64,000 nucleotides of DNA from the NCBI GenBank assembly GCA_050273025.1, contig CP158635.1, positions 21,886,001 through 21,950,000 of the forward strand, written 5' to 3'. Below, piece by piece: positions 11,263-59,700 of the stretch. The stretch is from Cenococcum geophilum. Taxonomy: Eukaryota. The translations under genes and the position numbers were made by a program. The stretch's first letter is position 1. Every line of letters begins with the position of its first letter. The notes under the pieces were generated by a model. The model saw only the letters and a list, made by a program, of their open reading frames with translations, did no database searches and was not told where the DNA came from.

Positions 11263-12083
11263 GTTAAGTAAAAATTGTTGTTAAGAAAATTAGTTTCAAG
11301 ATGAGGATTGAAAGTGTAATTAGAGAATGGAAGTCTGATTGAACATGTTAATGAGAATATTACTGGGGGAGTAAAGCTTCTCAGATAGTAGAGGAAGAGC
11401 TACAAGTTTGAGCGTTAGAAAAAGATAATTGAATGGCTTCTAGATATATATACAAGAGCCTACATTGATGAACGTTCTAAAGCCTTCTAATGTCTGAAGT
11501 TGACATCCGGTTATCCGAGGCTTAATGCAAGCGGGATCTTTTACGCCCTACGCCCTGTAAAGAATTGTTTTAGCGATGCAAATGAGGGGAATTTGCTGAG
11601 TCTGGTATAGTCTTGGCATACGGCTTTCCTTTTCGGGTTATATTTCCCTTCGCCGTTCAAGTACAACTGAAATTTCGACGTCCTAGTTGTACACCTCTGA
11701 AGATTGCTAAGCTCCTCGACATATTCCCCTCTGAAGTACTTCGGACACTTGCCTAAAACCCACATAACGTGGCAAGGACTAAAACTAATAGCCCCCTCGC
11801 AGGTACGCCTTTCTCGATGGCACACGAGATAGACACTGGAACTCGCTACAGAATGCCATGGCAGTTCCAAGGTTGAGGGAGCGGCTGGAGTCGGCATAAG
11901 AGAGTCGGAATAAGAGGGTCGGAGAACTCCTTTTTAAATTGAAAGGCTAGATATCCTTGTGCAATATTTTATCAATTTAGTGTTCGTGACAGCGAGGCCT
12001 TCTCGGTATTCGTCCCTGAGTGCTTCCTGGCAAAGTCACTTTTACCAAGCTCAAGACGGACTATGCCCCGCTCTGAGCTTCCA

Positions 12084-13648: not shown

Positions 13649-13819
13649 AATCGGTATTCGGAGCAACAATCATTGGAATGGACAGCCAAATGAAGTTTGC
13701 TAGAAAGAATTAGTTCACGTTCCTCGGCCATTCATAGGGCTGAGAGAGCTTGGACCGAGCTTCAAAACCCCAAACCAACTTCCTATCCCACTCTGAGTCC
13801 TCAGTCCACTAATCCTACA

Positions 13820-14820
13820 ATGCTAGAACCCTACAGGCCGCCCGCATGGGTCGAATCGCCCTACCTACGCTCCCTAATCGTACGCTCTCCCTACACATCC
13901 TCCCAACTCCTCTTAGCACCCCAAATTGCTCTCCTCCCACCCCACTCACACCTCCGCTAACCCCCGCCCAGGCAGGCGGCCTCGCAGGCACCACCGTCGA
14001 CCTATCCCTCTACCCCCTCGACACGCTAAAAACACGCCTCCAGTCCTCCGCCGGCTTCGCGCGCGCCGGCGGCTTCCGCGGCATCTACGCCGGTGTCGGC
14101 AGCGCGGTCGTCGGATCGGCCCCGGGCGCCGCGCTCTTCTTCATGACCTACGACAGCACGAAGCGGCTGCTGCTGTCGCGGCACAGCATCCGGCACACGG
14201 CGGACGGCACGGCGCACGCGGTGCCCGCGGCTGCGGGCTGGGCGGGCAGCGAGGCCCTCGTGCACATGCTGGCGGCGAGTCTGGGCGAGGTGGCTGCGTG
14301 CGCGGTCAGGGTGCCGACGGAGGTGGTCAAGCAGCGCGCGCAGGCGTCGCAGCATCCGTCGTCGTTGTCGGCGCTGCTGCATATCCTGCGCCAGCGCCAT
14401 GAGAGAGGCTTGATTGGGGTGTGGCGGGGGCTGTATCGCGGGTGGGGTATCACGATAATGCGGGAGGTTCCCTTTACTGTGATCCAGTTTCCGCTCTGGG
14501 AAGCACTGAAGGAATGGAGGCGCCGCAAACAGGGAACTTCGACAATCTCCGCTCTGGAGGGCGGGTTTTTTGGGAGCGTGGCTGGCGCTGTGGCGGCAGG
14601 AGTCACTACGCCGTTGGATGTGTTGAAAACTCGGATGATGCTTGCCGCGGAGAAGCAGAAGATGCTTCCCTTGTTGGAAAGTATACTAAGAGAATCAGGA
14701 CCAAGAGCTTTCTTCGCTGGAATAGGCCCACGGGTGTTTTGGATCAGTGCGGGTGGGGCTATATTCTTGGGGAGTTACCAATGGGCAAGTAATTTACTAG
14801 GAGGGACCGAAGGGTTATGA
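13820..14820 (+). CDS. PET8: Mitochondrial S-adenosylmethionine carrier (Pet8/Sam5)
   Basis: Exon 13820-13879, intron GTACGC..CTAAC..CAG 13880-13971, then 'AGGLAGTTVDLSLYPLDTLKTRLQ', 'VRVPTEVVKQRAQ', 'REVPFTVIQFPLWE', 'TTPLDVLKTRMML'. Confidence 0.93.
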
Positions 14821-15001
14821 AAAGAGTGCAGAAATGCGGCAGTGCACGATGAGAGCGGTATGTAAAAACATTTGTAAAAACAACCCCGCCAAAACGACAA
14901 CATCAGAGAGAGGGTATGTGTAAATTACTATGTACAACTAAATGCATCATAGAACGGCGCTTGGTAGTAATAAATCCACTTCGAACGCATATCCAACGCT
15001 T

Positions 15002-18000: not shown

Positions 18001-18474
18001 CGCCAGATCTTTACCGTGATATCTGATGATGCTGATATGAGAGCTTCATTGTTTTGCGCGAGCACAATGTCGTTAATCCAGTGCGTGTGTGCTTGGACTT
18101 GTTGTCGAAACTGCGTTGGAGGAGGTTTGTAGTTGGAACTATTAGAGTCTGCGAAAGGATCCTTATCGTCGCGGTCTTTTACATTTAGGTCGAGTCCGAG
18201 GTCCCAGGCGCATATAACGCCGTCTCGTCCACCCGAGTAGCTGATAGAAGTTAATGGAGATCCGGACTGGAGCTGTAGAGAGCGTACAGGATGGAGTTAA
18301 CTGGGTCTACGGCCAATCCATTTACCCCTAGTCGATGACCTCCAGCAGAGTTTGCCAGAGGCAAGACTATCACAAGAAGGAGAGGGTGATTAGTACGAAC
18401 GAGCCATATCAGTATGAACGAAGTAAGGATGGAGACCTACCGTAAGAGATGCGCTTCCGAGCGTTGCGCCCCAT
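15002..18474 (-). CDS. WD40 + DUF3337 protein, WDR48/UAF1/Bun107 family (deubiquitinase cofactor)
   Basis: Start [11 protein letters not shown]; '[10 protein letters not shown]', 'GHTDNVR', '[12 protein letters not shown]', '[11 protein letters not shown]', '[14 protein letters not shown]', '[12 protein letters not shown]'; multi-exon. Confidence 0.9.
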
Positions 18475-19019
18475 GCCCGCCCTCAATCAACGGACTTGCT
18501 TACATGCGGCCGAGGGTACCACGTGATCAAGCTATCTAGAACAACGGGTGGATTCAAAGGCAGCTGGTGATTGTCGCTGTGTCTCTTGTCGAGTCTGCGT
18601 ATTGCGTAACGATGTATGTACCTGCCCACCTGGACCTGCGGCGGCGCAATCGCTAAACTGTTACATTCTGAGCCGAGTGAACGGACTGGGCGCAGATCCC
18701 ACGTGGAAGCCGTTTATCCAGCATTTCGGGTGACGGATGGTCAGCGGAGTATCACTTGACAGCTGCATCACTACTGACGTTTATGTCAACCATTTTCCCA
18801 AATGAAATTGTTACAAAGGAAAACAACGAGGATTATCCCAACATCCCGGCCCCCACTTTCCTTTTATATGCCTGTATTGAAGGGACTGTTATATTCGCCT
18901 CAACTGGGTATTGCTATTTTATGTAGACTATAAATACATTCGTCCCAATGGAAACTGTATATCGGGTCCTAAAGACTCCCAAGTTTCGCTTTCCTTGCCC
19001 CGCAAAATGCGGATATGCT

Positions 19020-21544
<2,525 letters not shown>

Positions 21545-21856
21545 CTAGGAGACTCAGGACTGATAAAGTTGGATGGGAGTTAATTAGACACGTCCTGCGA
21601 GATGGAGGAAGGCAGACTCGCGCGTTGCGATGGTCGTGTGTTGTTCAAGGTTGGCAGTCGCAAGAGATTCAAGGTTCGAAAAAGTTCTTGGCAATGCAGA
21701 TGCGGGAGAGCTACAGTCGCTTCGGAAAAGGACGATCAAATGTCAGAAACCATGATCAAAAACAGAAATTTGCCGAATCCTCACCAGTTTGAACCCTTTT
21801 TCTGTACTCGCGCATGCCACCACCCATCACCTTATTATTACCTTATATTTGAAGCC

Positions 21857-22927
21857 ATGGGTAAACCTACTTGGTTGATTGAACAGAAGTCGATTATACA
21901 AGCTCTAATTAACCTCGGCAACAACAACTTCTATATAGAAGTTAAAACCGGCGTTCCTTAACCTACTCTTCGACGCTAGAGGGTGAATTTAAAGAGATAT
22001 AGCCAGATTAATCCACCAATTAAGGCAAATGGTAGGCCGCTGCTGCTTACGGATAAGGCCCTAGATGTATAACGTTAGGTGTTATTAATGTTAATTTATT
22101 AACGCGTACCTTAGGGCCTTCTTAAATACCTCTTATACAGCCTAAACGCCTATTTTAAAGAGATGCTCTGGTTTCTATATAATAAATATAATATAATAGT
22201 GGCACGGAGTACGCTATCAGCTGGATTAAAGCGAAGGAGATGGAGTAAAAAGGTTATAAAAATAATTATATAATAATGTAACCTAGGCCTAAGAGATAAC
22301 TAGATCGTTTAAATCTATAACTATAGGCGTAATTAGTTTATTTTTGTTAACAAATCGGCTTATAATGAGAAGACAATAGATAGGAAGTACGGGTGGGCAC
22401 CTATTAATAAGCCTACTAAAGGAATATTAGAATTAAAGAGATTTAAAAGATAGAGCTTGCTGCTAGCGTATACCTAGTAGGGCTATATACCTAGTTAGTT
22501 AATATATTAAGGCGCCATTAACGGGTTAATGTTTATTAAGTGGATAAAGAACGAGGTTCTTACTTATATACAGCCTTATCTACAGCCTCGTTTAGTTCTA
22601 GTAATAAATAATACATTAATCTATCGCAATAAGGTACGTGGTAACCATAAAGGATAGGCGCGTTAACGCTGCTGCTTACTTAAACCTAGGAAGTTTAACG
22701 CCTCTATAACGCTGCTAGTGTTAAACTTAAATATCTTCCTCCTTACTTACCCAATTTTAATCTAATTAAGGCTTCTTTTTATGACCTAAAGCAGTGGCTA
22801 CGTACTTATTAATTTAAAGCTAAACTATGGAATAACTTTAGCGACTTTTTAAACCATACGGTAGAGTAATAAGGATTTAATAAAAGGGCAAAAGGTCATT
22901 TCTTACGGGTAGGTATTAAGAAGTAGA
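21857..22927 (+). pseudogene. Tc1-type transposase pseudogene
   Basis: De-RIP motifs FVDES, VMDNASIH and YLPPYSPDFNPIE; D-to-E spacing is 34 after removing an intron (GTACGT ~22634 to TAG ~22689). Confidence 0.85.
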
Positions 22928-27953: not shown

Positions 27954-30900
27954 TGTAACGGAACCTTATAGCAAGAACTACAATGGGTTCGTTAATGGGC
28001 TAGGTGTATAGGAAATACAAGTACAAAAGTCAACAACGTAATAATAACTGGTGGAGTGGTTGCCTAATAGATTAACTCCAATTATATTCTAAGAATTACT
28101 ATAAGGAAGGAACTATCTAGGTAGGGACTAAGGGTCCTTAAATACATAACCGTACTCCTATAAAATCCTTCTTATACGTAATATACGTCTTATACGTAAG
28201 GTACATAAGTTCCTTTTATTCCTCTTATTTAATATATAGCATATTATATAACCTTAGTTACTATTCCTTATTATATAGTTCTATCGGCTCTATCCTAAAC
28301 TATACCTAAATTAACTAACTAGCTTCTTCCGTCTCTTCTCTAAGTAGTTATAATATTGTACTTAAAGTGTCCGTAATACTATCTCCCTCCTCTTTATCTT
28401 TATCCTTAAAGATTTAAAACATCTTTAAGTTGTTTACTAAAGGTGTAATATCCATTTAATTAATTTAGTTAATATTATTACTTATTATGCCTAAAGTAAT
28501 TTCTTCTTTATATGCCTAACGTTGTGCTCGCACTATTACTGCAATATTATCTCTTAGTAAGATTATACCGTCTCTATATTCTTATTATTTAAAAGAGGGG
28601 TTAGTTTATATTATATTAGTAAACCCATCTTCGCGATAACCGTCCTCTTACTTAGAGTATACTAAAGCGAATATTTATTTATCCTATAACGTTCGCTCTA
28701 CTTCTAATGCTAAATATATATAACCTATTACTCTTAATAGTCGTCTAGTTCCCTAATTAATTTATCTTAGGGTCTTATATTTAATCTACTATTGCGCGGC
28801 TAAATAGTAAACTATTACAAGCCCTTACTAAGTTAGAATGTTCCCATAATACAAAATAGAAGGCTCTAAATACTTAAATTACGGCGTCTGCTTATCTGCT
28901 TCATCTTAAGAAGATTTATAAGAAGGTTTATTCTAAGGAGTAGAAACTTATAGAATAAGGTTTATAGGAACTAGGTAATAAAAGAACGGATTCTCCTCTA
29001 ATAGAGAAGGAAATAGATCCGAGTAGTTCAGCAACTACTCTTCTTAGGTCCCCCTTAGGTGACTTATTCTTTAGCAATCCTTCTTTATTAATACTACCTA
29101 ACCTAATCTCTTTTAATACTCCTATACCTTTCCTATAGCGTTCTTTAAATTCTCTAGTAGCTCCTAGGTAGTCTCAGTATAGCCTATCCACTTTACTTTA
29201 TACTATATTTTATTATTAATATCCTTATAACTAATAATCCTTAAAACTTACTATTTATCTTCTTCTTATCCTCTATATATATCTACTTTATAGACCAGTA
29301 GCTTAACATTTCTATATACTAGCTCTAGCATTACGATATACTATATAGGGTAGATCTTTATTTTAGCTAGTAGGTTTAACTTAAATATAACCAGTAAAAT
29401 CCTCTATATAATTTTAAAAGGTCCTAGTCTAATATAGTCCAATTTCTTACTTAGTCGTCAACTCTTAAAATTTTTATATAGTAGCTATACTTTATCTCCC
29501 TCCTTAAGATCTAGTCCCTTAGATCTCTTAGCATTATAGTACTTTTTTATTTTTTCTTATACTTTCTTTACTAATTCCATAAGGTCTATATAAAGATTCA
29601 TTAACGTCTTTATTCTTTCTTTAGCTATACTACTTATTTTCTTTACTTGCTATAGTAACAACGATATTCTTAGCTTATATCCATAATTTGCTTTAAATAA
29701 TAATATGCCTATTCCTTCTTAAGGTGTTGCATTATATATAAACTATATAACTAGTAATAGCGATACCCAATTATTCTGTATATAATTAATATAATACCTT
29801 AGATACTGCTTTAGTATCTAATTTAACCTTTCTATTTAACCGTCTATCTGTGGATAATACGCGGTAGAAGTTACTGCTTAAACTCCTTACTCCGCTAAGA
29901 ATACTTCCTAAAATGCTGTTATGAATCTTAGGTCTCTATCTAATATAATCTTACTTAGTGCTCTATATCTTATAAACACTTCTTTAACGTAGATTCTAGC
30001 GATATCTTCCGCTGAGATTTCTTCTATACATGCTATAAAGTATCCCCACTTTATAAGCTTATCTACTATTACTAAGATTACATTATAATCTTATCCGGTA
30101 ATAGGATCTTTTAATTTTAGCAACTTAATAATAAAGTCCCATAATATAACCTTCTATAGTCTCTCTAGTATTTCGACAGGTTATAGCCCTCTATATGGCT
30201 TATGCCTCGTTAGTTTATTCCTTTAATAATCTAGATATTCCTTTATAACCTTTCTAGCTATCCTCTAGATTCCGTCAATAATGTACTCCTTTTAAAGTCT
30301 CGTCACTAAGCCTATAGCTCTATTATATCCTTAGGTTAGTCCCTTGTGGAAGTCTTCTATAAACTACTCTACTATACTTCTTAGGATATACTTTACTTCT
30401 TAATTTTCGTATATATCCGTCTGTGGATCTTCTAGCTATGCTTTTAGAATTCTTTATACCCAAAAGCTTTCCGGTGTCTTATAGACTTTCTTTAGTTTCT
30501 TATCTTCTTAAGTTGCTACAATTTTCGGATAATTATACCTAATTAACCTGTCTATATCTTTTCGCAATAAAGCCCCTAATGGCTTTTCCTTATTTTATAG
30601 TTTAGCTTTACAGCTTAGAGCATCTACCCTTATATTATCTATACCTTTAGTATACTAAATCTCAAAATAGTATTCCGCAAGCATCTCTACCCATCTAACC
30701 TATCTTTAGTTAAGTTCCTTCATTATTAGAAATCCTGTTAGGTTCTTATAATCTGTCTTAACTATAAATAGTTTCTCTATGCCTTACAAGAATGCTCTCC
30801 ATTTCTTTAATACTGTAACTATACCTAATAACTCCTTATTATAGATGTTATAGTTTAATTCCAGTAGTGTTATCTTCCGACTATAGTATGCCACTAGGTG

Positions 30901-33900
30901 CCATCTATCTTAATGTCTTTATATAAAGCACGCCCCTAGTATATAGTCTAATATATCTATTTCTATAACCGTCTCTAGACCTAGTTAATAGATCTTAAGA
31001 ACTGGCTCCTAGGTAAACAACTTTTTAACTTTCTTAAAGAGTTTTCTTTGCTCCTCTCCCTATACCTATAGTTCTTCTTTCTTTATTAACCGCGTAAATA
31101 GCTTAATATCCTTTAACCACTGCGCTATAAACCTTCTGCAGTAATTGCAAAACCCTAAAAACAATCTTAACTATATAACATTCTCTAGTTTCTACTAATT
31201 TACTATAGCCTTAATCTTCTTTAGATCTATACTAAGTTAGCCTAGTTTAATAATAAATTTAACAAAATCAGTCTTCCTAGTAAAGAACTCGCATTTCTTA
31301 ATTACTACTAGTATCTATTCTTCTTATAGTCTCTTTAAGACCCATTTAATATGTTCCCCAAATTCTTCCTTAGTTATTAAGTAGATAATAATATTATTAA
31401 GATATACTATAATAAATTCATCCAAGTATTCTCCTAACATATTATTGATACATTTTTAGAACGTTGCTAGTATATTTATAAGCCCAAATTGCATAACTAA
31501 TAGTTTATATAGTCCTTCCTTTAACCTAAAGGCTGCCTTCTATTTATCGCCTTCCTTAATCCTAATCTAATAGTACGCCCATCTTAGATCTATCTTTATA
31601 AAGATTTACGCATTACCTATTCTGTCTTAAATTTCGCTAATTAAGGGTAAAGGATACCTATCCTTCCTAGTAATACTATTTAACTATCTATAGTTAATAC
31701 ACAGCCTTAGTTTACCATTTTTCTTTAGTACGAACAGTACTAGATAACCCGCTAATAACTACGATGGTCTAATATATCCCTTTTATAAATTTTCCTAGAT
31801 AAACTCTTTTAACGCTCTACCTTCTTCTTTAGTAAGCTTATAAATTAGAAAGAACTTTAGACTTATTCCTAGTTCTAACTCTATTTTATAGTCCCATGCT
31901 ATATATTCTAATAGTTTTTTACTTTCCGGTAACCATAGTTTCTTACCGTACTTATGGTATCTCTTTAGTATATAACTTAGTCCTTTTTCTATTTCTTTAT
32001 AGGTTGCTCCTACTTAGTACCATACCAACTTGGCTTATTATTACATCTTACGGCGTTAAGTATCTCTAATATCGACCTAACCTATAATCTAATTAATCCT
32101 CAGATTATATTCCTATAACTAAGGCATGCCTAATACTGCCTTATCCTGTCCTAATGGTAGGATATCAAAAGACATTTTAATTTATCTCCCTTTAATAGTT
32201 ATCCGAATAGGTCCTATTTTAAGATTAATAATCCCTCCTCTATAGGTTATTAGATCTCCTAAAATTATAACTAATAGGTAAGATTACTTCTTTTGTCTAT
32301 AAGGTAGTCCTATTCTCCTAACTACTACTAGTAAGATATAGTTTTGTGTTACTCCACTATCTATTAGCACTTCAAACTGCTAATTTTACCAATTAATTTA
32401 TAAATTTAGGTGTTGTCCTTAAATTCCTTTAAGGGTCTAAGGCTCTACCACTAGCTCCCTCTAGTCCTATAGGCCTTTACTTTTTTTAACTATTAGCTGC
32501 TTAATCCTAATATACTTAGCTTACTCTTTAGCCAATACCTAGTTCGCTTTTTATCTTTAATATACTATAGATACGTGTTTTTTAAGCATTCCCACCACTA
32601 TCGTCTATCTAAGTATTCTTCCGTAAGGAATCTTCCTAGTTAAAGTACTAAACTTTCTTCCTCTTAGACCTCTACTAGATGCTATCTATATATATATTTA
32701 GCATTCCTATACTATTACTTATCTATTATCCAGTATATCCTTATAGGGTATTTCCAATTCTTTTCCTTTAGATTCTTATACATTTCGCATATATTATCTA
32801 CGCACGCAATCTATAATAACGTATAGTATACTAGGTGCTTTAGGTTAACTCTTAGCTCGTCTTCGTCCTTAAGTTTAAACCTTTATTGTGCTAATCTAAA
32901 CATTACAACTTTATTTGTAGGTACTAAAATACGTCTCTTACTTCTCTAGTCCTCTAAACGTTCCTCTAAATCCTTTAACGTTATAATTAAGGCTCCTTTA
33001 ATATATGTTATAGCCTTCTCTATAATTAGGTAGTTCTAAATAACTTTTTCATCCAACTATATATAGAAATCTTCCCACTTATTATTATGCCTTTACCTAT
33101 ACTACTTTTAGTATAGCTGCTAAAGTATATACAGTCTGTCCGTAAGAAAGTATCTTCTTATTGCTATATTATAACAGCCTTTTATATATTGTTCCTTAAA
33201 CCTAGTAGGAATCCCTAAATCCTCTTCTTATTCCAGTTTAGTAAGCCACTTAGCTCTTAATATACCTACTCTCGGCCTATTAGTGATTCTTTATACTAGT
33301 GCTCTGTCCTTTATACGTCCCAATGTGCTAGATCTCTTATCTAGTTTCTATTCTTACTATGCAATAATTCTTTACCTAAACTCTTCTATAGTTTTTTTTA
33401 GTTTGCGCCTTGCGCTCTAATCCTTAAAGTTATCTTACTTCTTAATCCTAGTATTAATTTTTCGATCTTTAGTTTAAACACTTCGTTTAACTAGTAAATC
33501 CTCTAGGTTTATATATTTGTCTCCTAGTCTAATTACTATTTATGCCGCAGATTCTCTAATTTATAAAGAAGCTCCTTACTTTTTATCTATAGGTATCCTA
33601 ATTTATACTCCGAATTCTTGACCTCTTAGATTCTTTAATCCTAAGCTCGCTTCTAACTTAAGCTTAGCTCTTGCCTTAGTTTAACTAGGCTTAACTAGTA
33701 TCCTTATCTTATTTTAAGAGTCCTAGATCTTACTTATCTCGTCTTAAGAATCTTATACTATTGGGAATTCTTATCCTAAGCTTATTTATATATTTTTAAA
33801 CTAAGCTACTGCTCTGCTCCATCGGTTATCATCCGTTATAGGTCCTTAAGCTTACCTTATCTTGTTTTAAGAATCTTGGTTATCTCTTATCTCGCTATAA

Positions 33901-35904
33901 GAATCTTAAGCCTTTAGCCTTTTGCCTTTATTAAGTGCTAAAGTGGTTTACTATCCTACTTCTCTTACGTCTTATAAAGTGATAGACATTATGTCTAGTG
34001 GGGTTTCGATTCCTACTAATGTTCCTTATTCTGTAACGGAATTATCCTCTACCTCTAGTATAACATCTCTAAGGTCTACTCGCTCCTAGTAAGCGGCCCT
34101 TATTGCCTTATTATTATAGAATGTTTCGCCTAGGTCGAATTTATTATCCTTAATATCCAATCTACAAACTGGTTTATTAGTTCCTCTATATCCTATAGGT
34201 GCTAGCTCTTATAGCTAATAGCTTACGCCATACTTAGCGTCCTTATGAATTCGGTATGCATTATTATAACAAAACGTAAAACTTCTAATTAAACATTCTT
34301 TTATTCCTTATAGCATATTGTCATCCCTTTATATATATATATCGTCTGCTAGTCTCATACCCTTTACTATATAGTGACTCTACCCACTTCTATAGTCTCT
34401 AACGTAATGACCCTGTTTTCCGCAATTTATATAAGCTCCTTCTTTAAACCATTTCTCTTACTATGGAGTCCACCTAAATATCTTCTGCTGTTGAGATCCC
34501 TAATTCGGCCTCTGCTCCTTGGACCTTTAATTACCTAATCCTTGTCCTCTAGGTTTCTATAGTTTGCTCCATTTCTTATAGGCTTCTTTAGTGCTACTTA
34601 GGTCTATTAGCTCTGCGCCATACTATAGTTTCTAACTTAGCTTTTATTATTGCGTACTCTGCGCCTTATATAACTGTAAAACTTTGTCCTAGCCCTTCTT
34701 AGCCTGTTCCCTTTAGTAGATCTAATTGTTAATCTTAATCGCCTAATCTATTAGTCCCCTTAGGGTGTCTATATCTTCCATTAGGATAATTACGTCCTAG
34801 ACTTTAGCCTTAAGTCCCTATTTATACTGTGCTATAAGCGCCCTATTATTCTACTCTACTTATATTACTAGTGTCTGGAACTGTATTATATACTTAATTG
34901 CTAAAGTTTATTACACGAGGTTCTAGAGTTTTCTTTCCGCTATAGTTATTTCTTCTAGGTCTCTAAATATCTGCGTGAGTTGCTTTACAAATCCTTCCTA
35001 ACTTAAGAATATAAATCGCACGTCTTAGTTAGTGGTTGTCATTCCATTTACCTATATCTCTGTAAGGTAAGGTTTAAACCACTTAAGTGCTTTTCCTAAC
35101 AAGAATAGTCCTACGTAGGCTATCCGATCCACAGGTATAGGTAACTTTGCTCCCTCCTATAAGACCTTAAAGTGCATCTGCGTAAGAAATCCTTTAAGCT
35201 TTAACCTCTTTCCTATAAATCTCTTAATTAATAGTAGCTTAATCTTTGCTACTTCTATCCCGTTAAGTCTTTCTTCTAATACTATATTATTAGCTGTTAG
35301 CTAGTTAACTATTTCCTATAGCTATCTAACCGTTATAGGTTGCTATAAGTTAGTATCCGCCATACTAGTATCACCTCCTGTCCTTAAAGTAGTTGCTACC
35401 ATTAATGGCGTCATAGTGGCTGCTTTTAGTGGTATATTATTTAACTTCTTATATTAATACTATAACTAGGTAGTAATTATATAACGGAACCTTATAGCAA
35501 AAACTACAATAGGTTTGTTAATAGGCTAGGTATATAGGAAATGCAAGTATAAAAGTTAACAACGTAATAACAACTGGTGGAGTGGTTGCCCAACAGATTA
35601 ACTTTAATTATATTCTAAGAATTACTATAAGGAAGGAACTATCTAGGTAGGGACTAAAGGTCCTTAAATACACAACCGTACTCCTATAAAATCCTTCTTA
35701 TACGTAATGTACGTCTTATACGTAAGGTACGTAAGTTCCTCTCGTTCCTCTCGTTTAATACGTAGCACATTATATGACCTTGGTTACCATTCCTCGTTAC
35801 ATAGTTCTATTGGCTCTATCCTAGACCGTGCCTAAATCAACCAACTAGCTTCTTCCGTCTCTTCTCTAAGTAGTTATAACATCGTACTTAAAGCGTCCGT
35901 AATA
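27954..35904 (-). mobile_element. Full-length RIP-degraded Gypsy chromovirus (gag, PR, RT, RNase H, IN, chromodomain)
   Basis: LTRs 27954-28378 and 35480-35904; 5-bp TSD CCTAG (27949-53, 35905-09); zinc knuckle ~34400-34435; 'LIDSG' ~32360; YL(DD) ~31395. Confidence 0.95.
28487..29100 (+). pseudogene. Antisense Zn2Cys6-like/coiled-coil ORF of the Gypsy element (second copy)
   Basis: ATG at 28487, collinear with 510-1093; Cys positions are Tyr codons (RIP); probable intron ~28715-28770. 3' end approximate. Confidence 0.6.
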
Positions 35905-38900
35905 CCTAGGATTGTGATACTGCTAGTCGCGATCTTAGTGAGGATGCTACGTAAGATTAGCAACTTCAAAGTAGCTTCTTTTAGGCTAGGGTTAAGAGAG
36001 GTTGCCCTATTAAGTATGCAACGAAGTGACGCATTCTTAAATACTGTAACATATGTTCTCTATACTACCTATTCTATAAGATTAGATAACTGGGCTAGGT
36101 ATAGTGCTACAGCCCTTATAGCGCAGAAGAACTCCCATAACTTTATGCCTAAGGCATACGTCTTACAAGTGTTAGGCTCAATACTATGCTATAAAAGGCT
36201 TAAAACCAAGTAAGATTGGCCTAATTGGATAATAAAAGCAGGCAGCGGGCCTGGTAGGTTAATAAGCGAGCCTAAAAATAAGCCATTAGCACTGAGAGAT
36301 CGATCTAAGGATAGAGATTTTTAACTATGGCCTAGTTAAAGCGGGAGAGTATATTAGCTAGTGTATTATCTTTGGATAAAATCCAAGAAGATTGCAACTA
36401 GATATTAAATGCGGTAGCCTAAACTAAGATTTATCAGAGGAGTAAATTGGCAGGGCCTTTAAGCATTATATTTTATAGGCCTGTAAGGGCAACTATATTA
36501 TCCGTATAGACGTAAATAAATAAATATTACTAGGCAGGGCTCTATTTTATAAATATGTTAGTAATAGCGAGTACTTTAAGCATATTAATGTGGGCACGGA
36601 GGTGCTCGGGGGCAGAAGATACTGCGAAGAGGTTGTCTTATAGCAGCGCGGAGGCATAAGGGCGCTATTAACTATAAGGAGTAGAATAGGTCTCGGCGGA
36701 GGAGTGGCCTAGGCAGCTATAAAAGAAGCTAGCATAACCATATTTAGATAAGGCATCCGTAAAGAGATAGATCTAGGGGTAAGTAACGTCCTCCTAAAAG
36801 AAATAAACCCCATTTTAAAGCGCTAGGGCTTTACTCTACTAAGCTAGGTCGGAGATTACTGCTAGTAGGATAGGTAAAGTGTGGCAGTTTATAAAAGAGA
36901 AGGCTATAATAAGGTCCTATAGTAATCTTAAGTAAAATCGCCCCAACTAGATAACTTTTACGGCCTAGGCTAGGCTACCTCTAAGTTACTAGCACTATTT
37001 AAGAGAGATTTAAGGCTTAAGGATAAAAGAGGTAAGTAAATCTTATAATACCATCTACTTAATAGGGCTAAGGGAGAGGAAAAAGGTATTAGTATTAATC
37101 TAATAACCTAGAACGTCTAATACTATACTATAGGAGTCTTTAGTGGCGTTAGGAGGAAAACTAAGTAGTGTAATTATAAAGTTATATATATAAACCACCA
37201 GTGCGTGGCTAGTGCCTAGGTGTAAAATAAATATAAAGTTATTTAGGTAATGAACTAGTGTAAAGAAAGCAACGATTAGATAAAAATGGCGTTTAAATAC
37301 CCAATATAGGGCTTCTGTAAAGAGGTTAAAGAAAAAGGGCACAATAGCTAAACTAAAGGGAAGGCAGCATTTAGTGTATACTATCTTCTCCCATTTAAAA
37401 CCCAGTAGGCGTTAGTTAGTAGTAGCGACCAGGATATTCTAAAAAGCGTCTTTAAGATCGCGTTTAAGAATAACGGCTCCTCTCCTAGCGAGAAGGATAA
37501 GCGCTAGAATGTCGTCTACAGTGCTATAAATAAGGGTAGAGTAGGCCTCTAGGATAGTAGCGTTAACAGAGAGGCCTTAGTAAGGCTTAGGCGAAGAGAG
37601 ATTATAAATACGGCGGAAGGTTCTATCTGGCTTAGGTATAAGTCCTAAGGGGGAATAGCAGATTACTTTAGGTAGACGAATAGTAATACAGCCAATAGGC
37701 AGATCGGTAGCAATCTTTATAGTAATTACCCTAGGGTCGGTATTAGATAAAAGTTGATTTAAATATATACGTGCTAGCAGTAAGGCAGTAACTCTAATCC
37801 GCGCGCTATATATTAGGATACCCTTAATTAAGGGGCCAAGATCTCTAGGGTATAGGAGTAGCTCATCCCTCTAGGCTAACGCGTTTAATGGTAACGGTAA
37901 AATATAAAGTGGATACCCTAGGGTAAATACCTTAAATCTTAGTATTAAATTTGGGCGTAGAGGGGGTATAAATTATTATAGAGACCCCTTACAATCTTTC
38001 TTAACGTAATTCCCTTTATATACTTTACAGAGATATTAATAGGAGTATAGTAATTTAAAGCACGGGCGGCCTATATTTCAATTACCGCATACCTAGCCTT
38101 ATAGGGATAAGATAGATATATCTGCCTAAGGGCGTTTAGATAACGCGCCACTATAGGGGGATAATAGGGCTAGGCGTAAGGTGGCGAAGTTATAGTTAGC
38201 TGCTTATAGTTTAATAGGGATAGTCTAGTTAGTAGGGTCAGTTTATCCAAGCCTTATAGCTCTTTAGTGGACAACTATAGCTAAATTAAAAACGCTGTTC
38301 CAGATAAACTGTGCAAAGAAGCCTATAATAGCTTAGTAGAATTTTGCCATTATAATAGCTAAGGGGGTTAATATGGCCTAGAGGGTTTAAACAATAATAC
38401 TATAATTAGTAAAACCCTTAAGCCAAATGCCTATAGAGGAGAAATCTTTTCTAGAGCCATTACTAAAGGTAATAACTCTTTTATCTGCCGTTAACTCTAT
38501 CTAATTAGAGTTAATTCTAGATGGGTTATTGCGTAGCTTTATAAGGTTTTCTAAAACAAATATACCCTTTTAGATTATAGTAACTTCGGAAACTAGGATC
38601 CTAGAAAGAAGCAGGTCTAGGCTTTTTATAGTAGGAGGGAGAGAAGACTTACTAGAGTTAACCTCTACCGCGTTAATTATTATAGGGTTCTTCTTAATGG
38701 CGGCGAGCCGCGCCTAGTATATTTCTTCTATAGCTAACTTCGCCTAGGCTGTGGAAGCAGTAAATACTTTAAGGGTAGCCTAGTTTAAAGCCGCCTTATA
38801 ATTACGCTCCTGCTTATAGTCTTTTAGCTCTTATTTATAAATATCCTATAGGCGCTTTTCGGCTGTAGTAAAGGGCGTAGGGGCCATAGTAACGGAGGAG

Positions 38901-41419: not shown

Positions 41420-44400
41420 GGGCTGGTTTACTAACTTTTTTCCACCTATTCGTGCCCACCTGGTCGACGCCGCCAGGTGGGTCAAATTAAAGCCCAACAG
41501 GTGGATTGTAAGCGCCACTAGCAAGCGCTCGTGCAGGGGTGTAGATTAAATAGGTAAGAGCGGTTCGTTTACTAGAGGTAGTTGCTAAGGTTGCTAGTGG
41601 GCGAAATAGCGGTGGAGCAGGGTTATATAAGCCGCACGCGGGACGTCTAAAGGCTCTATATAAAATAAGTAGTTAGAGCCTTATAGATATAATTAACCCG
41701 TTCTTAATATACGCACCTTTTTTATAGGCGACGACAACGAGCCCATAGAGGCCAGCCCTGTTAACACTACTGCCAGCGTAGCTCCCCCTGCCCCTAGCCA
41801 TAGCCATGACCCAACCGCTACCTTTACCACTACCTCTACCACCACCTCTACACCTAGTATAACGTCCTCTAAAGCTGCCTCTACTACTACCTTACTAATA
41901 TTAATACCTATAATAAAGCTGCTAAAGAAGCAAGTAAGGGCGAATACAGTAAAGAAGGATCTTATAGCTGCTAGTGCTAGTTCCAAGCTACCTATTAAAA
42001 AGACTTAGAGAAATAAGGCGGCAGAGGGCAAGGATCCTAGTAAGAAGCCTTAATTAGTATAGCTTAAGGCGTTAAGTAAGGCGTTTCTAAAGTATATAAA
42101 GCTATTAGTTACCTAAGGCAAAGAGACCAACGGAGCTACATTTAAAGCCACCAATTACGCTAACGCTATTACCTATATTAAAGTTAAATCGGGCTAGGAC
42201 CTTACTCTTAATCAGTTAATAAATAAGTACGATTATTAAAAGGCTATATACCGCAAATGGGAAGCGCATATTAAGGCGTGTTTAGGGTAAAATAAATATA
42301 AGGTTACTGGCTTACTATAAACTAATAAGGAAGGCGTTATAAAGGGCTATTTTAATAGCCATATTAAAAGGAGACCTTTTAAAACAAAATGGCCTATTTA
42401 CTATAAGCAACTAACGGAGCTACTTACTAGTAAAATAGCCCGTGGTAATTATACCGGCATAATTAAGGAGGCGCTTAATAAGGATTCGGTTTAAAACCGG
42501 GGCAATATTAATTTAAATTCGTCTAATTATAATAATAAGGATAGTAAGGATCTAAATATACCGCGCAGTATAGTTAAATAGAGCCTATTTAGTACGCCAA
42601 TCAATAGCTAAAGCCCTACTCCTACACCAGGTATATTAACACCCTTAACACCCTTAACGCCTTCGCGATCCTCCTTAGTATCCTTATTAATATCATTATC
42701 TTCTATAAGCTAATTTCCCTTACCTACGCCTAGCATAACGGAAAAGAGGGCTTAAAACACTAAGAAAGTAAAGAGGCTAGAGTTAATAAAGCGGTTAACA
42801 AAGAACGCGGCCAAGGCTGCCAATTAAAGCCATTTATTAAAGACATTAGCAGTAACAGAAGCTTTAAGTAAGAGTATTAGTAAGACAGCGGCGACGTTTA
42901 AATTATTAAAGATAACGCTATTAGCAATATATAGCTCACCAATTAAGAAGGCTATAGGTAGCTTTATTTATAATTTTAAGTACCTTCCTACTATTAATTA
43001 GTAACTTATTCTAAAAGGATTTAAGGTTAAAAGCAGGACCTATATCTTTAATTCGCTTACCGGTAAAGCTTAAAAAGGGTATATTAAGCAGCTAGTAGTT
43101 AATATAAAACAGCAGTAGTTGCATATTAAATAATTAGGGTCCTTTAGTAGAGAATTAAAGGTTAGTAGTAAGTTAGAGGATTAATATAATATTAATTTTA
43201 GCTCTAATCCTTAAGAGGTATAGGCAAAGTAATTAATCTATAGCTAAATAACCTATCACAACTTTTTTAATAGTGGTGTTGCACGTATTTATAGGTACTT
43301 AAATGCTACGCTTACAGATAAATTACATCTACTACTTCAGTCTTTATAAAGATAGGTAATTGTCTAAACGAGGTTATCTGTAACTAATTAGGTTAGTCAC
43401 GTGAGCTAAGCGAGTTTAGGAAATCCACCAAATTCCACCTATAGAATAGGAGAATCAATAAGCATCAATTAAAAATCAGTTACCACCCCTATACTATTAC
43501 AATAGCAATACGTATCACCGGAAGTAATACCGACACTAATTAGTGATTACAGATTAGGAGACGTACTACCTACGAAGAGAGACGAGCTTAATTAGTCTCT
43601 GCTTGCAGGCCTCTACCGAACCTGTTTGCTAAGGAGTATTAGTTAATATATATCTAAAGAACCAACCCCCTAATAGGCCCTTAATTCTTTATATATAGTC
43701 CTTAGGTACTTAAAGAACCGACCCCTTAATAGGCCCTTGGTTTGCGTCTATTACGTACTCTAAAAGGCGTTAGGTATTTAAGGAACCAACCCCTTAATAG
43801 GCCCTTAGTTTTGTATTTATTACGCGTTTTAGAACCTAAAAATTAAAACTTAATAAGATAAAGAACCTTAGTTCGCGTCTATTACGCGTTTTAAACCCTA
43901 TAACTATTACACGAACTTACCTGTTATTATAAGAACCACTATAACAGATATTAGGCAATAAGTTAGAGAAGGACAAAAGAAGTAGGGCAGAGGAATTAAT
44001 ATAGACTCTAATAACATTAATATTACAGACATTAATAACTTCGTGTAGTTTAAGACCTTAGAATATAAGGTCTATAACTTTAAAGATAATAAACTATAGG
44101 AAGCCTATAAGGATAATTTCTAGAACTTTATAGTATAAATCTTCAAAAACTGCAACTAGATATATATTAGAAAGCTTCGATTACTCCTACGGACTAACGG
44201 CGTATAGGTAAGAAAGCATAGGAACGCCACAGTTCCTAAATCGCTATTTAATACCCTATAAGAATAAGAACCTATAGAGTAGACTAAGCTTAAGATTAAA
44301 GAGTATATAGCAGCCGGAGGGAAGTTTAATTTAGGACAAATTAACTACCTCCTTAAAAACAACTTCGCTAGTGCCAGTACTAGTACTAGTACTACTAAAA

Positions 44401-47400: not shown

Positions 47401-50400
47401 CCTATAACGATTATAGCAAAGATCTAGTTCTAATATAGTTACTAACTATTTAACGTGTTAGCTAGAGAATTATTCTAGTACTTATAGCAACCCTATAAGG
47501 AAATAAAAGAAGACTAGCCTCTTTATACCTGCGCGATATCTTATAAGCTTATGTATAGTCCAGCACCCACCTAAACAGAGACTTCTTTGTACGCCCGCTA
47601 CTAGAACTTAGACTAAAAAATAGATTAATTCTAAGAGTTATTAAACCACTATACGGTGTCCTGGAAGCTGGTAACCACTAATTTAATATATACTACCGCC
47701 ACTACCTTAATAAGCTATGGATAAACTAGTTAATATATAACCCCTGCTTATTATATATAAACAGCAATAGCTTTAGAATTATAGGATTGCAGACTAATAA
47801 TATACTATTCCTTGCTAATAAAACCTTTACGGAGGCTAAAGAAGCTAAACTTTAGGAGGCAAAGTTCCTAGTAAAAGAGAGAGAGAAGCTTACGCTAAAT
47901 ACCCTAATTAAGTTTAATAGAGGCTATATTAAGCAAGAAAAAGATTTAATAGCCCTTACCTAGGAACGTTAATGCTAGAACCTAAAGCTAGTTACTATAA
48001 AGGCTATAGACCTAACTAGCTCTAGAGGGGAAGTCCGTAAGGCAGTTATACTAAAGGACTAGTACGTTGCTTAAAGAGCAAGAGGAGCCTATATCGCCAT
48101 AGTCTATTAACCAGAAGCTGCCTTTAACCTCTCCTTTACGGTATAAGTTATTAACCTAAAGGAAGAATATGCGAAGTAGCTTAATAAGCAGCTATAATGG
48201 CAAATTAATAATCCCTCCTAAGGACTTTGTTTCGTACAACTTAATATAAGCACTCTTAAACTAATAATATTTACGGACTTATCCTTTACTAATAACTATA
48301 ACCTCTCCTTTTAGATCGGCTTTGTTATTATACTTACGGATAAGGATAATAGGGCTAATATTCTCTATTAGTTATCTATTAAGTGCAAGCGAGTTATATA
48401 AAGTGTCTTAGCATCTAAACTATATGGCATAGCCTATGGATTTAACACCGGAGCTGCGATTAAAGCAACCATTAAGAAGATCCTATAACTTAAATAACTA
48501 CCACTTACCCTTTATACCGATTTAAAATCTCTATATAACTGCCTAGTTAAACTTGGGATAATATAAGAGAAACGACTTATAGTTAACCTAATGTGTTTAC
48601 AATAATTATATGAGAGAAGAGAAATAGCAGAGATTAAATGGATTGACGGAGGCAGTAACCCTATAGACGCTATAATAAAATTAAAGCCTTACCAGGCGTT
48701 AAAGGACCTAATTAATATGAATATAATTAAGCTATAGGTTACCAAGTAGGTAGAGAAAGAAGATGTTAAAGTAGGAATAGAGTGTGTGAAGATGTTAAGC
48801 TAGCCGCTAAGGCGCTAGTACTAAGCGAGCTAATAGCGATTTTCCATCCCGGGGATGGAAAATTGTGATTAGTTACTTTAACTACCTAGCAGAATTTGGC
48901 AGAACTTAATGGAATTTAGTGGAACATAGCGGAATTTAGTAGAACTTAATAGAATTTGGTGGAATATGGCAGAATTCGGCAGAACTTAATAGGACCTGGC
49001 AGAACTTAACGGAATTTAGTAGGAGGCGTGCTTAAGCACCACTAAAAACTAAATACTCCTAGTGTCTGAACGAGGTTGTCTGTAACTAATTGGGTTAGTT
49101 ACGTGAGCTAAGCGAGTTTAGGAAATCCACCAAATTCCACCTGTAGAATAGGAGAATCAATAAGCATCAATCAAAAATTAGTTACTACCCCTACACTATT
49201 GTAATAGCAATACGTATTACCGGAAGTGATACCGACAGTAATATTACTACTAAAATTAAATATCGTCTTCCTCTAGAACTTCTAGGACCTCTACTTTAAC
49301 TACACCTAAGCCTTACAGCTAGAACGTCCTAATACTACTCCCATATTATATCTGCTATATCCTCCCACCGCTAGCTTATTACTTGCTTACTAATATTATA
49401 AGAAACTATACAGTTGTCGGTATCTAAATTGTCCTCACTTTTATAACTAAACTCGTCCTTATATATATTATAGCTGTTCTAGTTTAAAAAGTTATAAACC
49501 GCCGTTAACGCCCATATAATCTTTACCTGCGTCTTTTAGGTATAGCCTCTACGGCCTTTATTAAATATTAAAAAGCGCGCTTTAAGTACACCAAACGTAC
49601 GCTTAATAACATTCCTTAAGGACGTATAGCGTAGGTTAAATAGTTTATACTTATCCTTTAGCCTCTGCCTTACGCTAGCCTACTCTTTTAAATAATATCT
49701 AACCTTTTATATAGTACTAGGACTAAAGGATTATTAGCTATATATCCGGCGTCTACTAAATAGTATTTTTCTAATAGTATATAGAAGCCTTAATCCTTCG
49801 CAAAACTAAGTACCCAGCCATTATATACAGAGCCTTCCCACCTAGGTAAAATATACACAAAGTTTATATCAAAATCGCACACCGCAAGCACGTTCTACGA
49901 TATCCAGCCCTTCCTATTTCGCCATGCAAATTACTTAGCTACTAGCACCAAAATAGGCATATACGAGCCGTCGAGCGCGCCTATATAGTCACTAAAAAAA
50001 GGCCACATTTTATCGTCAGATTCGATCCGTTTAGGTGTGCAACTAGGCAGTAGTTTAACGATATCTTTATGCAGCTTATATAGAGCATTAAGAACTTTAT
50101 AAAAAACGCTTATATAGGTAAGTTCTGGTCCTCTATAACTTTAAATATTAACTACCTATAGGCTAATTATACGAGTTGAATATTAAAACTCCTACCCAAC
50201 TATCCTCATACTTAGCCCCCCCCTATATAGCGCCATAAATATCATTAGCTTTTACTCCGCCGATATATATTCCTACAGGCGTAATTCGTATTTATTAACC
50301 AGCCGATTAAGCAGCAATTTAAACATCCTTTAGTCCATATAGGTAAGCGTTTTAATCGCCTTAGGAGGACCATATAATAGCTCTACTATTATTACCTCAC

Positions 50401-56700: not shown

Positions 56701-59700
56701 TTATTTAACTATATTAAGGAAACTATCTATCTTAAGCTTCCTTATTGCGTATCTTTTTCTATTTAGTTACGCTTTAGTATCTAGGTCTAGCTATATCTAG
56801 ATAGGGATATAGTCTAGGGTAAGTGCCTATTCTTCTTTGGGGTTACACCTTTTAAGTCTCTAGTATAGGCCTTTGTCTATAAATATAAGGTTAATTATAC
56901 TTCTAATAGTGCCTTATTGCCATATAATTGCTTCTAGGGGGGTAGCTAGCTTAAGGCCCCAGATATCTATAGCTCTTAATAGGCACTCTAACTATTAGTC
57001 TGCAGTAATATAGATACCCCCCTACCGTAGGTAGTAGAGGTTTATATCTCCTAATAGGATAAACTCTATACCTTTAGTTTCTAGTAAGCTTATTACCGAT
57101 ATAATATTCTCTATTTATAGAACCCCTTTAACCCTAGGGTTATATATATTAATAATTTATACCAGTCCCCTATATGTTTAAATTATTATAACTATAATAT
57201 CTGGGTTAATTGCCTGCTATAACTATAAGGATAGGCTAATAGCCTTGCTAATTATAAAGTATATATATATAGCTGCTTTTGGTTTATATAGGAACTGGAA
57301 TCCTTAGGGGCAGTATATTAATTATATAAAGGTATTATAATACGGCTCTTATATAGCAAGGATATAGTATTTCTCTAGGTCTAGACTGTCTAGTAAAGGC
57401 CTTATAAGGCGGTGGTTTGTGTTACTATAGTTATACTATATAATAGATAGGTGGTGGACCCCTAGCAAGGGTCTTTTAACTCTCTTTTGTTCCTCACTTC
57501 TTTTATTTCTACTTTCTTTAAAATATTTAGAGCTTCTATCTCTTATATCTACACCCTAATTACTACTTATTTTATATAGAGCTTTCCATTTCTGTGTCTT
57601 ATATTCCTATTAGCGCTTCTATATCTAAATCTATTATTATTACCAGTTCTTCCCCTATTCTTACTAGTCGGCTATATACCCTTTATAGGTTGGCTGCGAA
57701 TATTATATTTGCCGTATTAAGTCTAATTTTTAATTATCCTAGTCTTAAGCCTGTTATCGCTATCTATAGGGGTCTTCCTACAGGGCGTCCTCTCCCTTAT
57801 ATCCCCTGTAACCCTTATGTCCCTAATTAGTCTAGTAATGTCGCGCGGCGTCGCTTCTGGCCCGTTAAGGCTTAGGATAGCTAGCCTAGCCCTTTAGTAT
57901 TAAAGGTAGGAAACGCTAGGAAGGCACCTATATCCCCCTAGCTTATTGCCTGTTGTTTCTATTTATATAACCTAGTATGCAGTTATTCCTATAGCTATTA
58001 AGCCCTTACCTTCCGTCTCCTATATTTAATATAGTCTTCTCTCTTCTATGCCTTATATGTGCTTTAGTAGCAGTTCGCGCATTTTATTTAGTCTTAATTT
58101 AAGTAATATCTCGTATCGTAGGGGCCTGCATAGTGGCCGTAGTACACCTATGCTGCGTATATAGATTAGGTGTATCCCTATTATATATAGCAATAGTATT
58201 ATTTTAGGCGTAGTCTGTAGTTATAGAGCCTTATATTATATATAAGGCCATTTATAATTATTCCTTTTTAGATAAGGAGTTTTTATATTCCTAATATATG
58301 TGTACTAACAATAAGGGAGCCGTGCGTTCGTCTAGCGTTTCTGTAACGTGGCCCGCCTCCACGTCGCCATACGGCCAAAAAGACTGAGAGTGCTTGCGAA
58401 CTTGTCGCAAGCGCGGCGGGACCTAATATATATACTCTTACAATTGCCCTCTCCTCTGCGCGCTCGTCCTCGAGCGCTCGCAGGGATTCCTCTGTGCGCC
58501 CGTTCGCGCCACAGGGATCAACGCCAAGAGTATCACTATATTAGTTAGTCCCCAGTAACGTAAGCGATCGGACTCAGCCGACCCGCCTTATCGCACGGAT
58601 GCGTGTTAGACTGTACCAGAGCGAAGTGATCGATGGGGATCGAACCCACGACACCTGGCCCCAGTAAGTTCGCAAGCACAATTGTAACGTGGCCCGCCTC
58701 CACGTCGCCATACGGCCAAAAAGACTGAGAGTGCTTGCGAACTTGTCGCAAGCGCGGCGGGACCTAATATATATACTCTTATAGTTTCCCTAGCAAGTCT
58801 CTAGTAACCCTTATATCCTCTTATTGTTCTTATTATATACTTAGTTTATATTTTCCTATTAAAGCTATTAGATTTAGGTGATTTCGAGTCCTAATATAAG
58901 GCGTTCCGTTTGTCTTACTATTTCCTATATAATTACTATATTATCTACCTAGCGTTCCTTTTTTACCCTAAGGCTTATAGGAACCGCTAGGACTTTAACT
59001 AGGTAATCCTTGCAGAGTACTTTTATACCAATACGTTCTTTTAGCCTATCCCCTACCCTTACAGCTCGTTCCTTTGCCTGTTAGTTCTTTAAAGTAACTC
59101 TAATATCTCCGCTCTTAAGGTATCGGACTATAATAGCGTTATAGACCTCTTTATATATCTCTATAAGGACTTCTATTTCTAATTATCCCCTAAGCCCCTC
59201 TGCTTGTTCTATATTTGGTTATATTATAATTATATACCCGGTTGTTAACTTAAGGGGGGTAAGTTCCCTATACTATAAAAGCGCAGCTATAGCGGCCTAA
59301 GTGCGGTTCGCCGGTAAGGGGGGGTTATACTTATTTTTAATTTTGCTTAGCCGTTAGAGGATTTAATTAAGGGTTTGCTAGAGGGGCGCCTAAGGTTTAC
59401 TAGACTAGCAAAGCCATTCTACTAGCTATATTAGTTCGTTATAGCTAACGGTTACTCCCCTATAATTCTGGATACTAGACGCGTCTAATAGGCTTTATAT
59501 TTTGTTAGATGCCTTCTTAATAGAGGTATTTCCGCTTTATAGTGTGGTATTCGCCTATCTTTATTATGGAGGGCCATTGCTAGGCGTAGTTCTAGCGGTC
59601 GCGCGCGAGTGCGAGCCACCGTCATTCGACGTGTGCCTCCCCTGCGATGCATGCATCTCAGGGGGATTCTCTAGGTGTTTTTCAGGGTTCTTTTGGTTGG

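Follow-up and report, generated by a model that had tools for sequence, protein, structure and literature searches.

The DNA analyzed here is a 64,000-nucleotide stretch of the Cenococcum geophilum contig CP158635.1, called the window below. Positions 58342-58783 of its minus strand are almost certainly a complete miniature terminal-repeat retrotransposon (TRIM), 442 bp long and bounded by two long terminal repeats (LTRs). The element belongs to a non-autonomous family of LTR retrotransposons that was recently active in a filamentous fungus affected by repeat-induced point mutation (RIP). Self-priming of the type known from the retrotransposon Tf1 is the best-supported mechanism for starting its reverse transcription, and we regard it as probable. 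A candidate primer-binding site (PBS) just past the 5' LTR is complementary, at 14 of 14 nucleotides, to positions 40-53 of the LTR, where the element's own RNA would be expected to begin.

To place the element in a family, metagenome contigs were scanned with an 18-nt pattern from the LTR (LTR positions 36-53), which returned at least 120 stretches. All counts of metagenome loci given here are among the matches listed. BLAST found the LTR in 111 of 120 loci, the other nine being unrelated chance matches. The 124 LTR hits include 89 without a core on either side, and 87 solo LTRs are full-length with both flanks and could be assessed. Perfect 5-bp target duplications flank 74 of these 87, nine have one mismatch, and in four the flanks disagree (truncation or rearrangement affects three of these). 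Compared with the LTR of the window element, 23 of the 87 are identical and 29 are 95-99% identical. The loci also hold nine complete elements of about 440-490 bp and, in one case (L028), a tandem core-LTR-core piece. If the window copy is included, 8 of the 10 complete elements have perfect target duplications, all different. The check named in the original prediction, which had described this element from the letters of the DNA, was a search for copies with distinct 5-bp duplications; such copies are numerous. Two core subfamilies, with a short or a long leader, differ by indels of 21 and 17 nt. Many variant contigs of the element occur in the DNA runs X1 and X2 (two species labels), in which LTR depth is several-fold the core depth. 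The window itself contains no second copy, and a family match was looked for in viral contigs and none was found.

The two LTRs of the window element are of the TG..CA type (TGTAAGAG...CGTTACA) and show a single difference, at LTR position 2, where the 5' LTR has TA and the 3' LTR has TG, a RIP-type TG>TA change. Between them lies a non-coding core of 240 nt, counted from the spacer through CAAT. None of the 7 stop-to-stop frames that overlap the element reached the Pfam cut-off (best E-value 0.012). With a target duplication, a multicopy family, solo LTRs and no coding capacity, the classification as a TRIM made in the original prediction is borne out. The G+C content of the element is 55% versus 37-39% in its flanks; the repeat was therefore mutated before the unmutated element inserted into it. 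The flanking repeat also occurs without the insertion, in X1 and X2 (joints 58318/58320 to 58787; loose ends at 58338 and 58787), so the element is a discrete insertion. Among LTR copies, G>A and C>T account for 241 of 466 differences and are enriched at TpG and CpA; some LTR copies have thus been hit by RIP-like mutation.

The case for self-priming begins with the complementarity of the two 14-mers. The original prediction had given the 442-bp anatomy, both 14-mers, a TATA-like box and an 8-bp hairpin, and all of them lie at the positions it named (Table 1). The exact complement that it had pointed out (58679..58666 versus 58744..58731) was confirmed, and it exceeds what shuffling produces: when the 20 nt following the LTR were shuffled 20,000 times, no LTR complement was longer than 11 nt, a length reached once, versus 14 nt observed. 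Eleven other LTR-like repeat pairs in our 484-kb sequence sample have complements of 5-8 nt, both orientations considered, and one odd pair (window 6152-6616) has complements of 10 and 12 nt. We also agree that there is no TGG-initiated, tRNA-type PBS, as the 20 nt past the LTR contain no TGG. The motif TGGGGCCAGGTG, 21 nt past the LTR, was considered as a tRNA-type PBS and rejected because it is too distant and is unconserved in the long subfamily.

The PBS is conserved across the family. Of 18 LTR-to-core junctions, 17 carry ATT followed by the identical 14-mer, across the short and long leader subfamilies. The sole exception (L093) has one RIP-type G>A change in the PBS. In the metagenome loci the LTR 14-mer cannot vary, since the search pattern spans positions 36-53. 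The DNA runs X1 and X2 are free of this bias; in them, variants at 10% or more are absent from both 14-mers but present at other RIP-prone LTR sites, such as 58408 with 29% in X1.

The position of the candidate primer is that of a plausible RNA start. It begins at the A of a CA dinucleotide (58744, LTR position 40). Counted from the initial T of the TATA-like run TATATATAT, this A lies 31 nt downstream, a spacing that suits a TATA-directed start by RNA polymerase II. The first 145 nt from LTR position 40 were predicted to fold with -60.4 kcal/mol versus -44.6 +/- 3.4 kcal/mol for shuffled sequences (z -4.6; 0 of 200 shuffles as good). At the core of the predicted fold is a 13-bp primer:PBS duplex, accompanied by a 7-bp U5 hairpin and by a long hairpin after the PBS. 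Five metagenome copies, drawn from the short and the long leader subfamilies, have the same fold architecture as the window copy.

Sequences of the family are present in RNA libraries. In the metatranscriptome library X7, depth declines upstream through the 5' LTR from 33,095 in the bin of the PBS to 6,140, 1,148 and 403, and it is 0 in both flanks. Over the same bins, depth in the DNA run X1 is flat (2,412 to 3,112). Among the raw RNA reads of X24, the signal for first mates on the plus strand was 617 versus 13.5; in most stranded libraries such mates stand for minus-strand RNA, which is here the sense of the element. X24 depth is 0 over positions 5-33 of the 5' LTR; only about 12 X24 reads span U5 and PBS, and how far they extend is limited by read length. 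This coarse polarity of the RNA libraries agrees with self-priming.

Under Tf1-type self-priming, the A of LTR position 40, some 31 nt past the T with which the TATA-like run opens, would be the start point of transcription by RNA polymerase II. The leading 14 nt of this RNA would fold back onto the PBS, 3 nt past the LTR, and the RNase H of a partner element would cut the RNA and free a 3' OH, as in Tf1. Minus-strand DNA would be made from this self-primer, without a tRNA. In each new copy the PBS would be copied anew from the primer, and the two 14-mers would thereby stay matched. Copying and insertion would be carried out by the proteins of an autonomous LTR element, the miniature element itself encoding nothing.

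Several observations weigh against this mechanism. The Tf1 leader adopts a pretzel-like fold with a central duplex and two further duplexes between PBS-adjacent and LTR sequences (PMC10085805). Here the geometry, the shuffle statistics, the conservation and the coarse RNA polarity are consistent with the self-priming put forward in the original prediction, but just one of the two side duplexes is found, and it is marginal: the 7-bp upstream duplex, the U5 hairpin, can be drawn and is reached by 354 of 5000 shuffles, and the downstream (third) duplex, reached by 2143 and 3981 of 5000 shuffles, is not above chance. The RNA depths come in bins 29 nt wide and as per-contig means, and no site where many RNA molecules begin is listed in the read data. 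In X24, 10 of the 12 reads over the PBS have T>A at 58669, which would create a mismatch at primer nucleotide 4 unless the LTR differs as well; no matching LTR change is listed. The strongest X24 signal lies elsewhere, at 58584-58634, where stranded RNA reaches about 600x versus 12x over U5 and PBS. This signal, found in 12% of the run at 90-95% identity and under one species label, has loose ends that fit the long-subfamily leader and belongs to a long-subfamily relative of the core. Because the U5/PBS depth is not comparable, the RNA seen at about 600x may start elsewhere or in a diverged LTR. No covariation of the two 14-mers could be observed in the metagenome loci, because the search pattern fixed the LTR 14-mer. 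ARAGORN found 0 tRNA genes in the 484-kb sample, which leaves no host set for comparison with the PBS.

A further point on the same side is the autonomous partner. The original prediction had proposed looking for an autonomous Gypsy element with the same LTR ends and PBS, and none with this LTR, PBS or leader was found in the 484 kb. The search covered LTR and PBS motifs, polypurine-tract junctions and repeat pairs; in large elements, RIP prevents a fair test of self-complementarity. At none of the 111 LTR-bearing loci among the matches listed does the LTR adjoin a coding core. The idea of a parasite of self-priming chromoviruses holds as far as the non-coding nature of the element goes; the parasitism itself was conjecture, with no partner or coding core at these loci. 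Gypsy reverse transcriptase (RT) and RNase H fragments do occur in contigs that carry the family, and mutated Gypsy pieces were found by tblastn with RNase H and RT sequences derived from the loci. Every nearby Gypsy fragment seen has short open frames only, and no retroelement domain was detected with Pfam in stop-to-stop frames from the window's AT-rich parts.

We also observed a 201-nt LTR family, TGTTAGG...CCTAACA with a TATAAAA box, at L076 about 2056-2256 (minus strand), L018 1723-1923 and L036 849-1049. The L018 copy is a solo LTR with a CGACC duplication. The L076 copy is preceded by AAGAAGGGGGGGGCAAT, which gives a junction of the form GGGCAAT followed by TGT, as in the miniature element. 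This family is a possible relative of the autonomous partner.

The features of the window element are collected in Table 1. Three of them were absent from the original prediction: the GAAAC target duplication, the polypurine tract and the T-arm-like hairpin. The 8-bp LTR hairpin, which the original prediction had offered as a possible alternative fold, is present; it lies partly upstream of the proposed RNA start and so could form only at the 3' end of the RNA. Its first arm is not strictly conserved, as LTR position 35 inside it varies in 32 of 104 LTR copies. The runs of five T (T5) at 58718-58722 and 58377-58381, one per LTR, are the sole runs of four or more T in the element. They correspond to LTR positions 62-66 and start 9 nt past the end of the candidate primer; the core has 0 runs of four or more T.

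Table 1. Features of the miniature element and their positions in the window
Feature	Position	Strand	Remarks
5' target-site duplication GAAAC	58784..58788	-	identical to 58337-58341
3' target-site duplication GAAAC	58337..58341	-	perfect 5-bp match to 58784..58788
5' LTR, 101 nt, TA(TG)TAAGAG...CGTTACA	58683..58783	-	pairwise repeat comparison
3' LTR, 101 nt	58342..58442	-	pairwise repeat comparison
TATA-like run TATATATAT	58767..58775 (LTR positions 9-17)	-	putative promoter role
LTR hairpin arm 1 GCTTGCGA	58746..58753 (LTR positions 31-38)	-	partial copy of the PBS core
LTR hairpin arm 2 TCGCAAGC	58733..58740	-	8-bp pairing with GCTTGCGA
Candidate self-primer AAGTTCGCAAGCAC	58731..58744 (LTR positions 40-53)	-	exact complement of the PBS
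Spacer ATT	58680-58682	-	3 nt between 5' LTR and PBS
Candidate PBS GTGCTTGCGAACTT	58666..58679	-	begins 3 nt past the 5' LTR
Predicted U5 hairpin GACGUGG-AGGCGGG-CCACGUU	58686..58706	-	minimum-free-energy fold; ends 6 nt before the PBS
Long leader hairpin, 9-bp outer stem UACUGGGGC/GCUCUGGUA	58614..58666	-	directly after the PBS
T-arm-like tip GTCGTGGGTTCGATCCCCATCGATCAC	58626..58652	- (sense)	contains B-box-like GGTTCGATCCC at 58636-58646
Polypurine tract AGAGGAGAGGG	58447..58457	-	4 nt before the 3' LTR; kept before family 3' LTRs
CAAT	58443-58446	-	between polypurine tract and 3' LTR

An alternative that we consider unlikely is that a host RNA (a tRNA half, for example, or another small RNA) acts as primer and that the LTR complement has another role, for instance as a long-range leader stem in packaging or dimerisation. 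There is a precedent in fungal TRIMs of the Helenus group, most of which are described as using the anticodon-loop region of a tRNA and not its 3' end (PMC10886601), and the expressed variant in X24 does have a PBS that mismatches the LTR. Against a host primer, the complement of the PBS lacks a CCA end. tRNA T-loops have a near-invariant A58, and the complement of the PBS has a C at this place. A host primer also leaves aside that the complementary 14-mer sits exactly at the expected TATA-directed start, and that shuffled sequences never reached a 14-nt match at the PBS spot.

The long hairpin after the PBS raises another alternative. Its tip, GTGGG-TTCGATC-CCCAT, has the shape of a canonical tRNA T-arm in the sense orientation, and it includes GGTTCGATCCC, which fits the B-box consensus. 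The core B box could be an internal promoter of RNA polymerase III, in which case the element would be a unit derived from a short interspersed element (SINE) or similar to TRIMp3, and the complementarity of LTR and PBS would be secondary. We judge this improbable, and equally so its corollary that the main transcript runs from near the PBS to the T5 run of the 3' LTR. In favor of this, the core is free of TTTT, and past the 5' LTR such a run is first reached with the T5 of the 3' LTR; we estimate, however, that roughly one in two sequences of about 300 nt would lack TTTT by chance. The abundant X24 RNA spans the core without matching depth over LTR and PBS, and TRIMs with polymerase III promoters have been described (PMC10886601). 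Against this, neither ARAGORN nor Rfam (even at E<=1) detects a tRNA, there is no convincing A box, and the spacing would be too small for one in the short subfamily. Core DNA depth is below LTR depth, so there is no separate, abundant SINE. An RNA that starts after U5 lacks the repeated R region and could not complete LTR-type reverse transcription.

It is highly improbable that each LTR, solo LTRs included, makes an RNA of about 27 nt, from the TATA-like run to T5, that primes the PBS in trans. The T5 run does begin 9 nt past the end of the 14-mer, and solo LTRs far outnumber complete elements. [quoted passage not shown] The notion of a single deletion remnant of a full-length element, with no mobile miniature family, has in its favor that the 64-kb window holds one copy only, and it is refuted by copy number and different target duplications: 111 LTR loci among the matches listed, ten complete elements of which 8 have perfect and different duplications, 74 solo LTRs with perfect duplications, and many variant contigs in both DNA runs.

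With Tf1-type self-priming as the favored mechanism, the T-arm-like hairpin needs an explanation of its own. In all leader variants, G.U to A-U changes leave the outer stem UACUGGGGC/GCUCUGGUA intact. At the tip, the long subfamily retains GGTTCGA, with other bases paired beside it (GTCGTG/CACGAC). The core was tested as a tRNA gene and rejected, as ARAGORN reports none and Rfam, at gathering scores, has no match in the window; even at E<=1, Rfam matched nothing in three loci that contain family copies. The hairpin could serve packaging or recognition, or it could be left over from a tRNA or SINE fragment; a polymerase III B box, the third candidate, fits poorly, since LTR-type replication could not be finished by an RNA that starts after U5. 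A more specific idea, which we think distinctly unlikely but set out for its consequences, is that the primer:PBS duplex and the T-loop-capped hairpin (GGUUCGAUC) jointly mimic a PBS-bound primer tRNA in its acceptor/T-arm half, and that small size keeps most copies below the length on which RIP acts, letting the element spread while the large elements of the genome are all inactivated. If so, the 442-nt RNA would hold everything that a Tf1/sushi-type reverse transcriptase needs for recognition and start.

The closest known systems are the elements of the Tf1/sushi group (Tf1, Tf2, Tj1, Tosmo1-3 and Tcry1, with Maggy, Skippy, Cft-1, Boty, Grasshopper and Afut1 proposed). [quoted passage not shown] Tf1 is the element in which the mechanism was shown; for Tj1, Tosmo1-3 and Tcry1 it was inferred (PMC4600332, PMC10085805). 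It has further been proposed for several ascomycete Gypsy elements (PMC6934838) and predicted for the plant Tcn1 and TAR lineages (PMC6317226). As in the Tf1/sushi group, the window element has a PBS past the 5' LTR that is complementary to a stretch of the LTR, no tRNA-type PBS, and LTRs that end in CA. A predicted U5 hairpin beside the PBS, marginal against shuffles, would be the counterpart of the U5-IR duplex in the Tf1 pretzel. Target duplications of Tf1 are 5 bp long, as here, and its primer duplex measures 11 bp, whereas the duplex here has 14 bp. In contrast to the group, the window element has no gag or pol, and its LTR is only 101 nt long. Unlike in Tf1, there is no supported third pretzel duplex; the sequence after the PBS is instead folded into a long hairpin of its own, tipped by a T-loop-like motif. 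Experiments have shown self-priming in Tf1, whereas here it is predicted.

In its other traits the element resembles the TRIMs of plants, animals and fungi, with short LTRs, a non-coding core that carries a PBS and a polypurine tract, target duplications, many solo LTRs, and tandem arrays of LTR, core and LTR (L028). The LTR:core ratio of the family is within the range reported for Helenus and Ajax (PMC10886601). Among the described TRIMs considered here, the primers are tRNA 3' ends or tRNA halves, whereas the window element has a self-complementary PBS. Helenus/TRIMp3 (Kojima 2024, PMC10886601) is likewise a fungal TRIM with 5-bp duplications and a tRNA-like motif (the GGTTC of box B), and its fungal members have been reported from rusts and a few Agaricomycetes (PMC10886601). 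In Helenus, however, a tRNA-like sequence with boxes A and B is located in the LTR, while the motif of the window element is in the core and has no A box. The Helenus PBS pairs with tRNA anticodon loops, and its author found no complementarity between LTR and PBS, whereas the window PBS pairs with the LTR (PMC10886601). We do not assign the family to Helenus/TRIMp3, as its LTR has no tRNA-like part and ARAGORN and Rfam detect no tRNA.

We also compared the element with the Conserved Hairpin Site of GalEa Copia elements, in which a 9-nt palindromic CHSeq1 (CTGATCAGT or CTAATTAGT) is paired with a nearby downstream CHSeq2 (PMC5445492). No LTR complement of this site was found in GalEa, whereas the sequence past the LTR of the window element, ATTGTGCTTGCGAACTT, has its partner in the LTR. 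Membership was rejected because both sequence and geometry differ. No described self-priming TRIM was found in the full-text papers searched. The family would combine two known things, TRIMs and Tf1-type self-priming.

If the self-priming interpretation is correct, the family delimits, in less than 450 nt, what self-primed reverse transcription needs in cis: primer and PBS, the hairpins of U5 and leader, the polypurine tract and the LTR ends. Such an element would be a convenient substrate for experiments that are difficult with 5-kb elements. It would also illustrate a route by which a retroelement stays active in a RIP-proficient fungus, given an element of 55% G+C in a repeat of 37-39% and 23 of 87 solo LTRs identical to that of the window. 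RIP acts above a length threshold, which is the basis of the argument that small size allows escape.

The genomic setting points to a host that is a filamentous fungus affected by RIP. The window is AT-rich, with a G+C content of 29-41%, except for a gene island at about 8-22 kb. This island (window about 8000-22000) has normal G+C and is flanked by RIP-mutated repeat blocks. Its products are ordinary eukaryotic proteins, namely a Cef1/Cdc5-type Myb protein, WD40 proteins, a mitochondrial carrier and an FAD oxidoreductase. Related metagenome contigs encode HET domains, NLR-like TPR domains and broken pieces of Gypsy RT and RNase H, and the public sequencing runs in which the element occurs carry fungal labels.

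Some further repeats deserve mention. An aberrant family copy (L063 2658-3066) has at its left end an inverted U5 (LTR positions 101 to 71) joined to U5 positions 90-101, followed by the PBS, the core and a normal 3' LTR, and it is flanked by a perfect GAACC duplication. Its structure resembles that expected from integration of a snap-back reverse transcript with two U5 ends. On the minus strand of the window, 6152-6616 consists of a 160-nt repeat, a 145-nt spacer and a second 160-nt repeat (also at 5532-5621 and L024 2213-2512). Directly past the first repeat, CCTCGGGCCTAC is the exact complement of repeat positions 62-73, which lie 30 nt after TATATT. We did not count this unit as a second example of self-priming, as L024 has the same unit without the second repeat, no target duplication is present, and similarity extends upstream of the repeat start. 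The unit is possibly another self-complementary mini-element, but it may also be of a different nature. A miniature-looking pair of 110-nt repeats (TGTATATAG...CCGTAACA) with a spacing of 348 nt occurs at L018 760-1216; its flanks do not match, and complementarity between LTR and downstream sequence is 5-7 nt only.

Larger mutated elements are present in the window as well. A RIP-mutated Gypsy element of about 7.9 kb occupies 27956-35905 of the minus strand, with 424-nt LTRs that are 90% alike and traces of RT and RNase H at 30679-31449 (tblastn). Its LTR family was also found in L001, L026, L028, L051 and L067. A direct repeat pair of 180 nt (43361-43540 and 49063-49242), 92% alike, 5.7 kb apart and starting with TGTCT, is probably another mutated LTR element.

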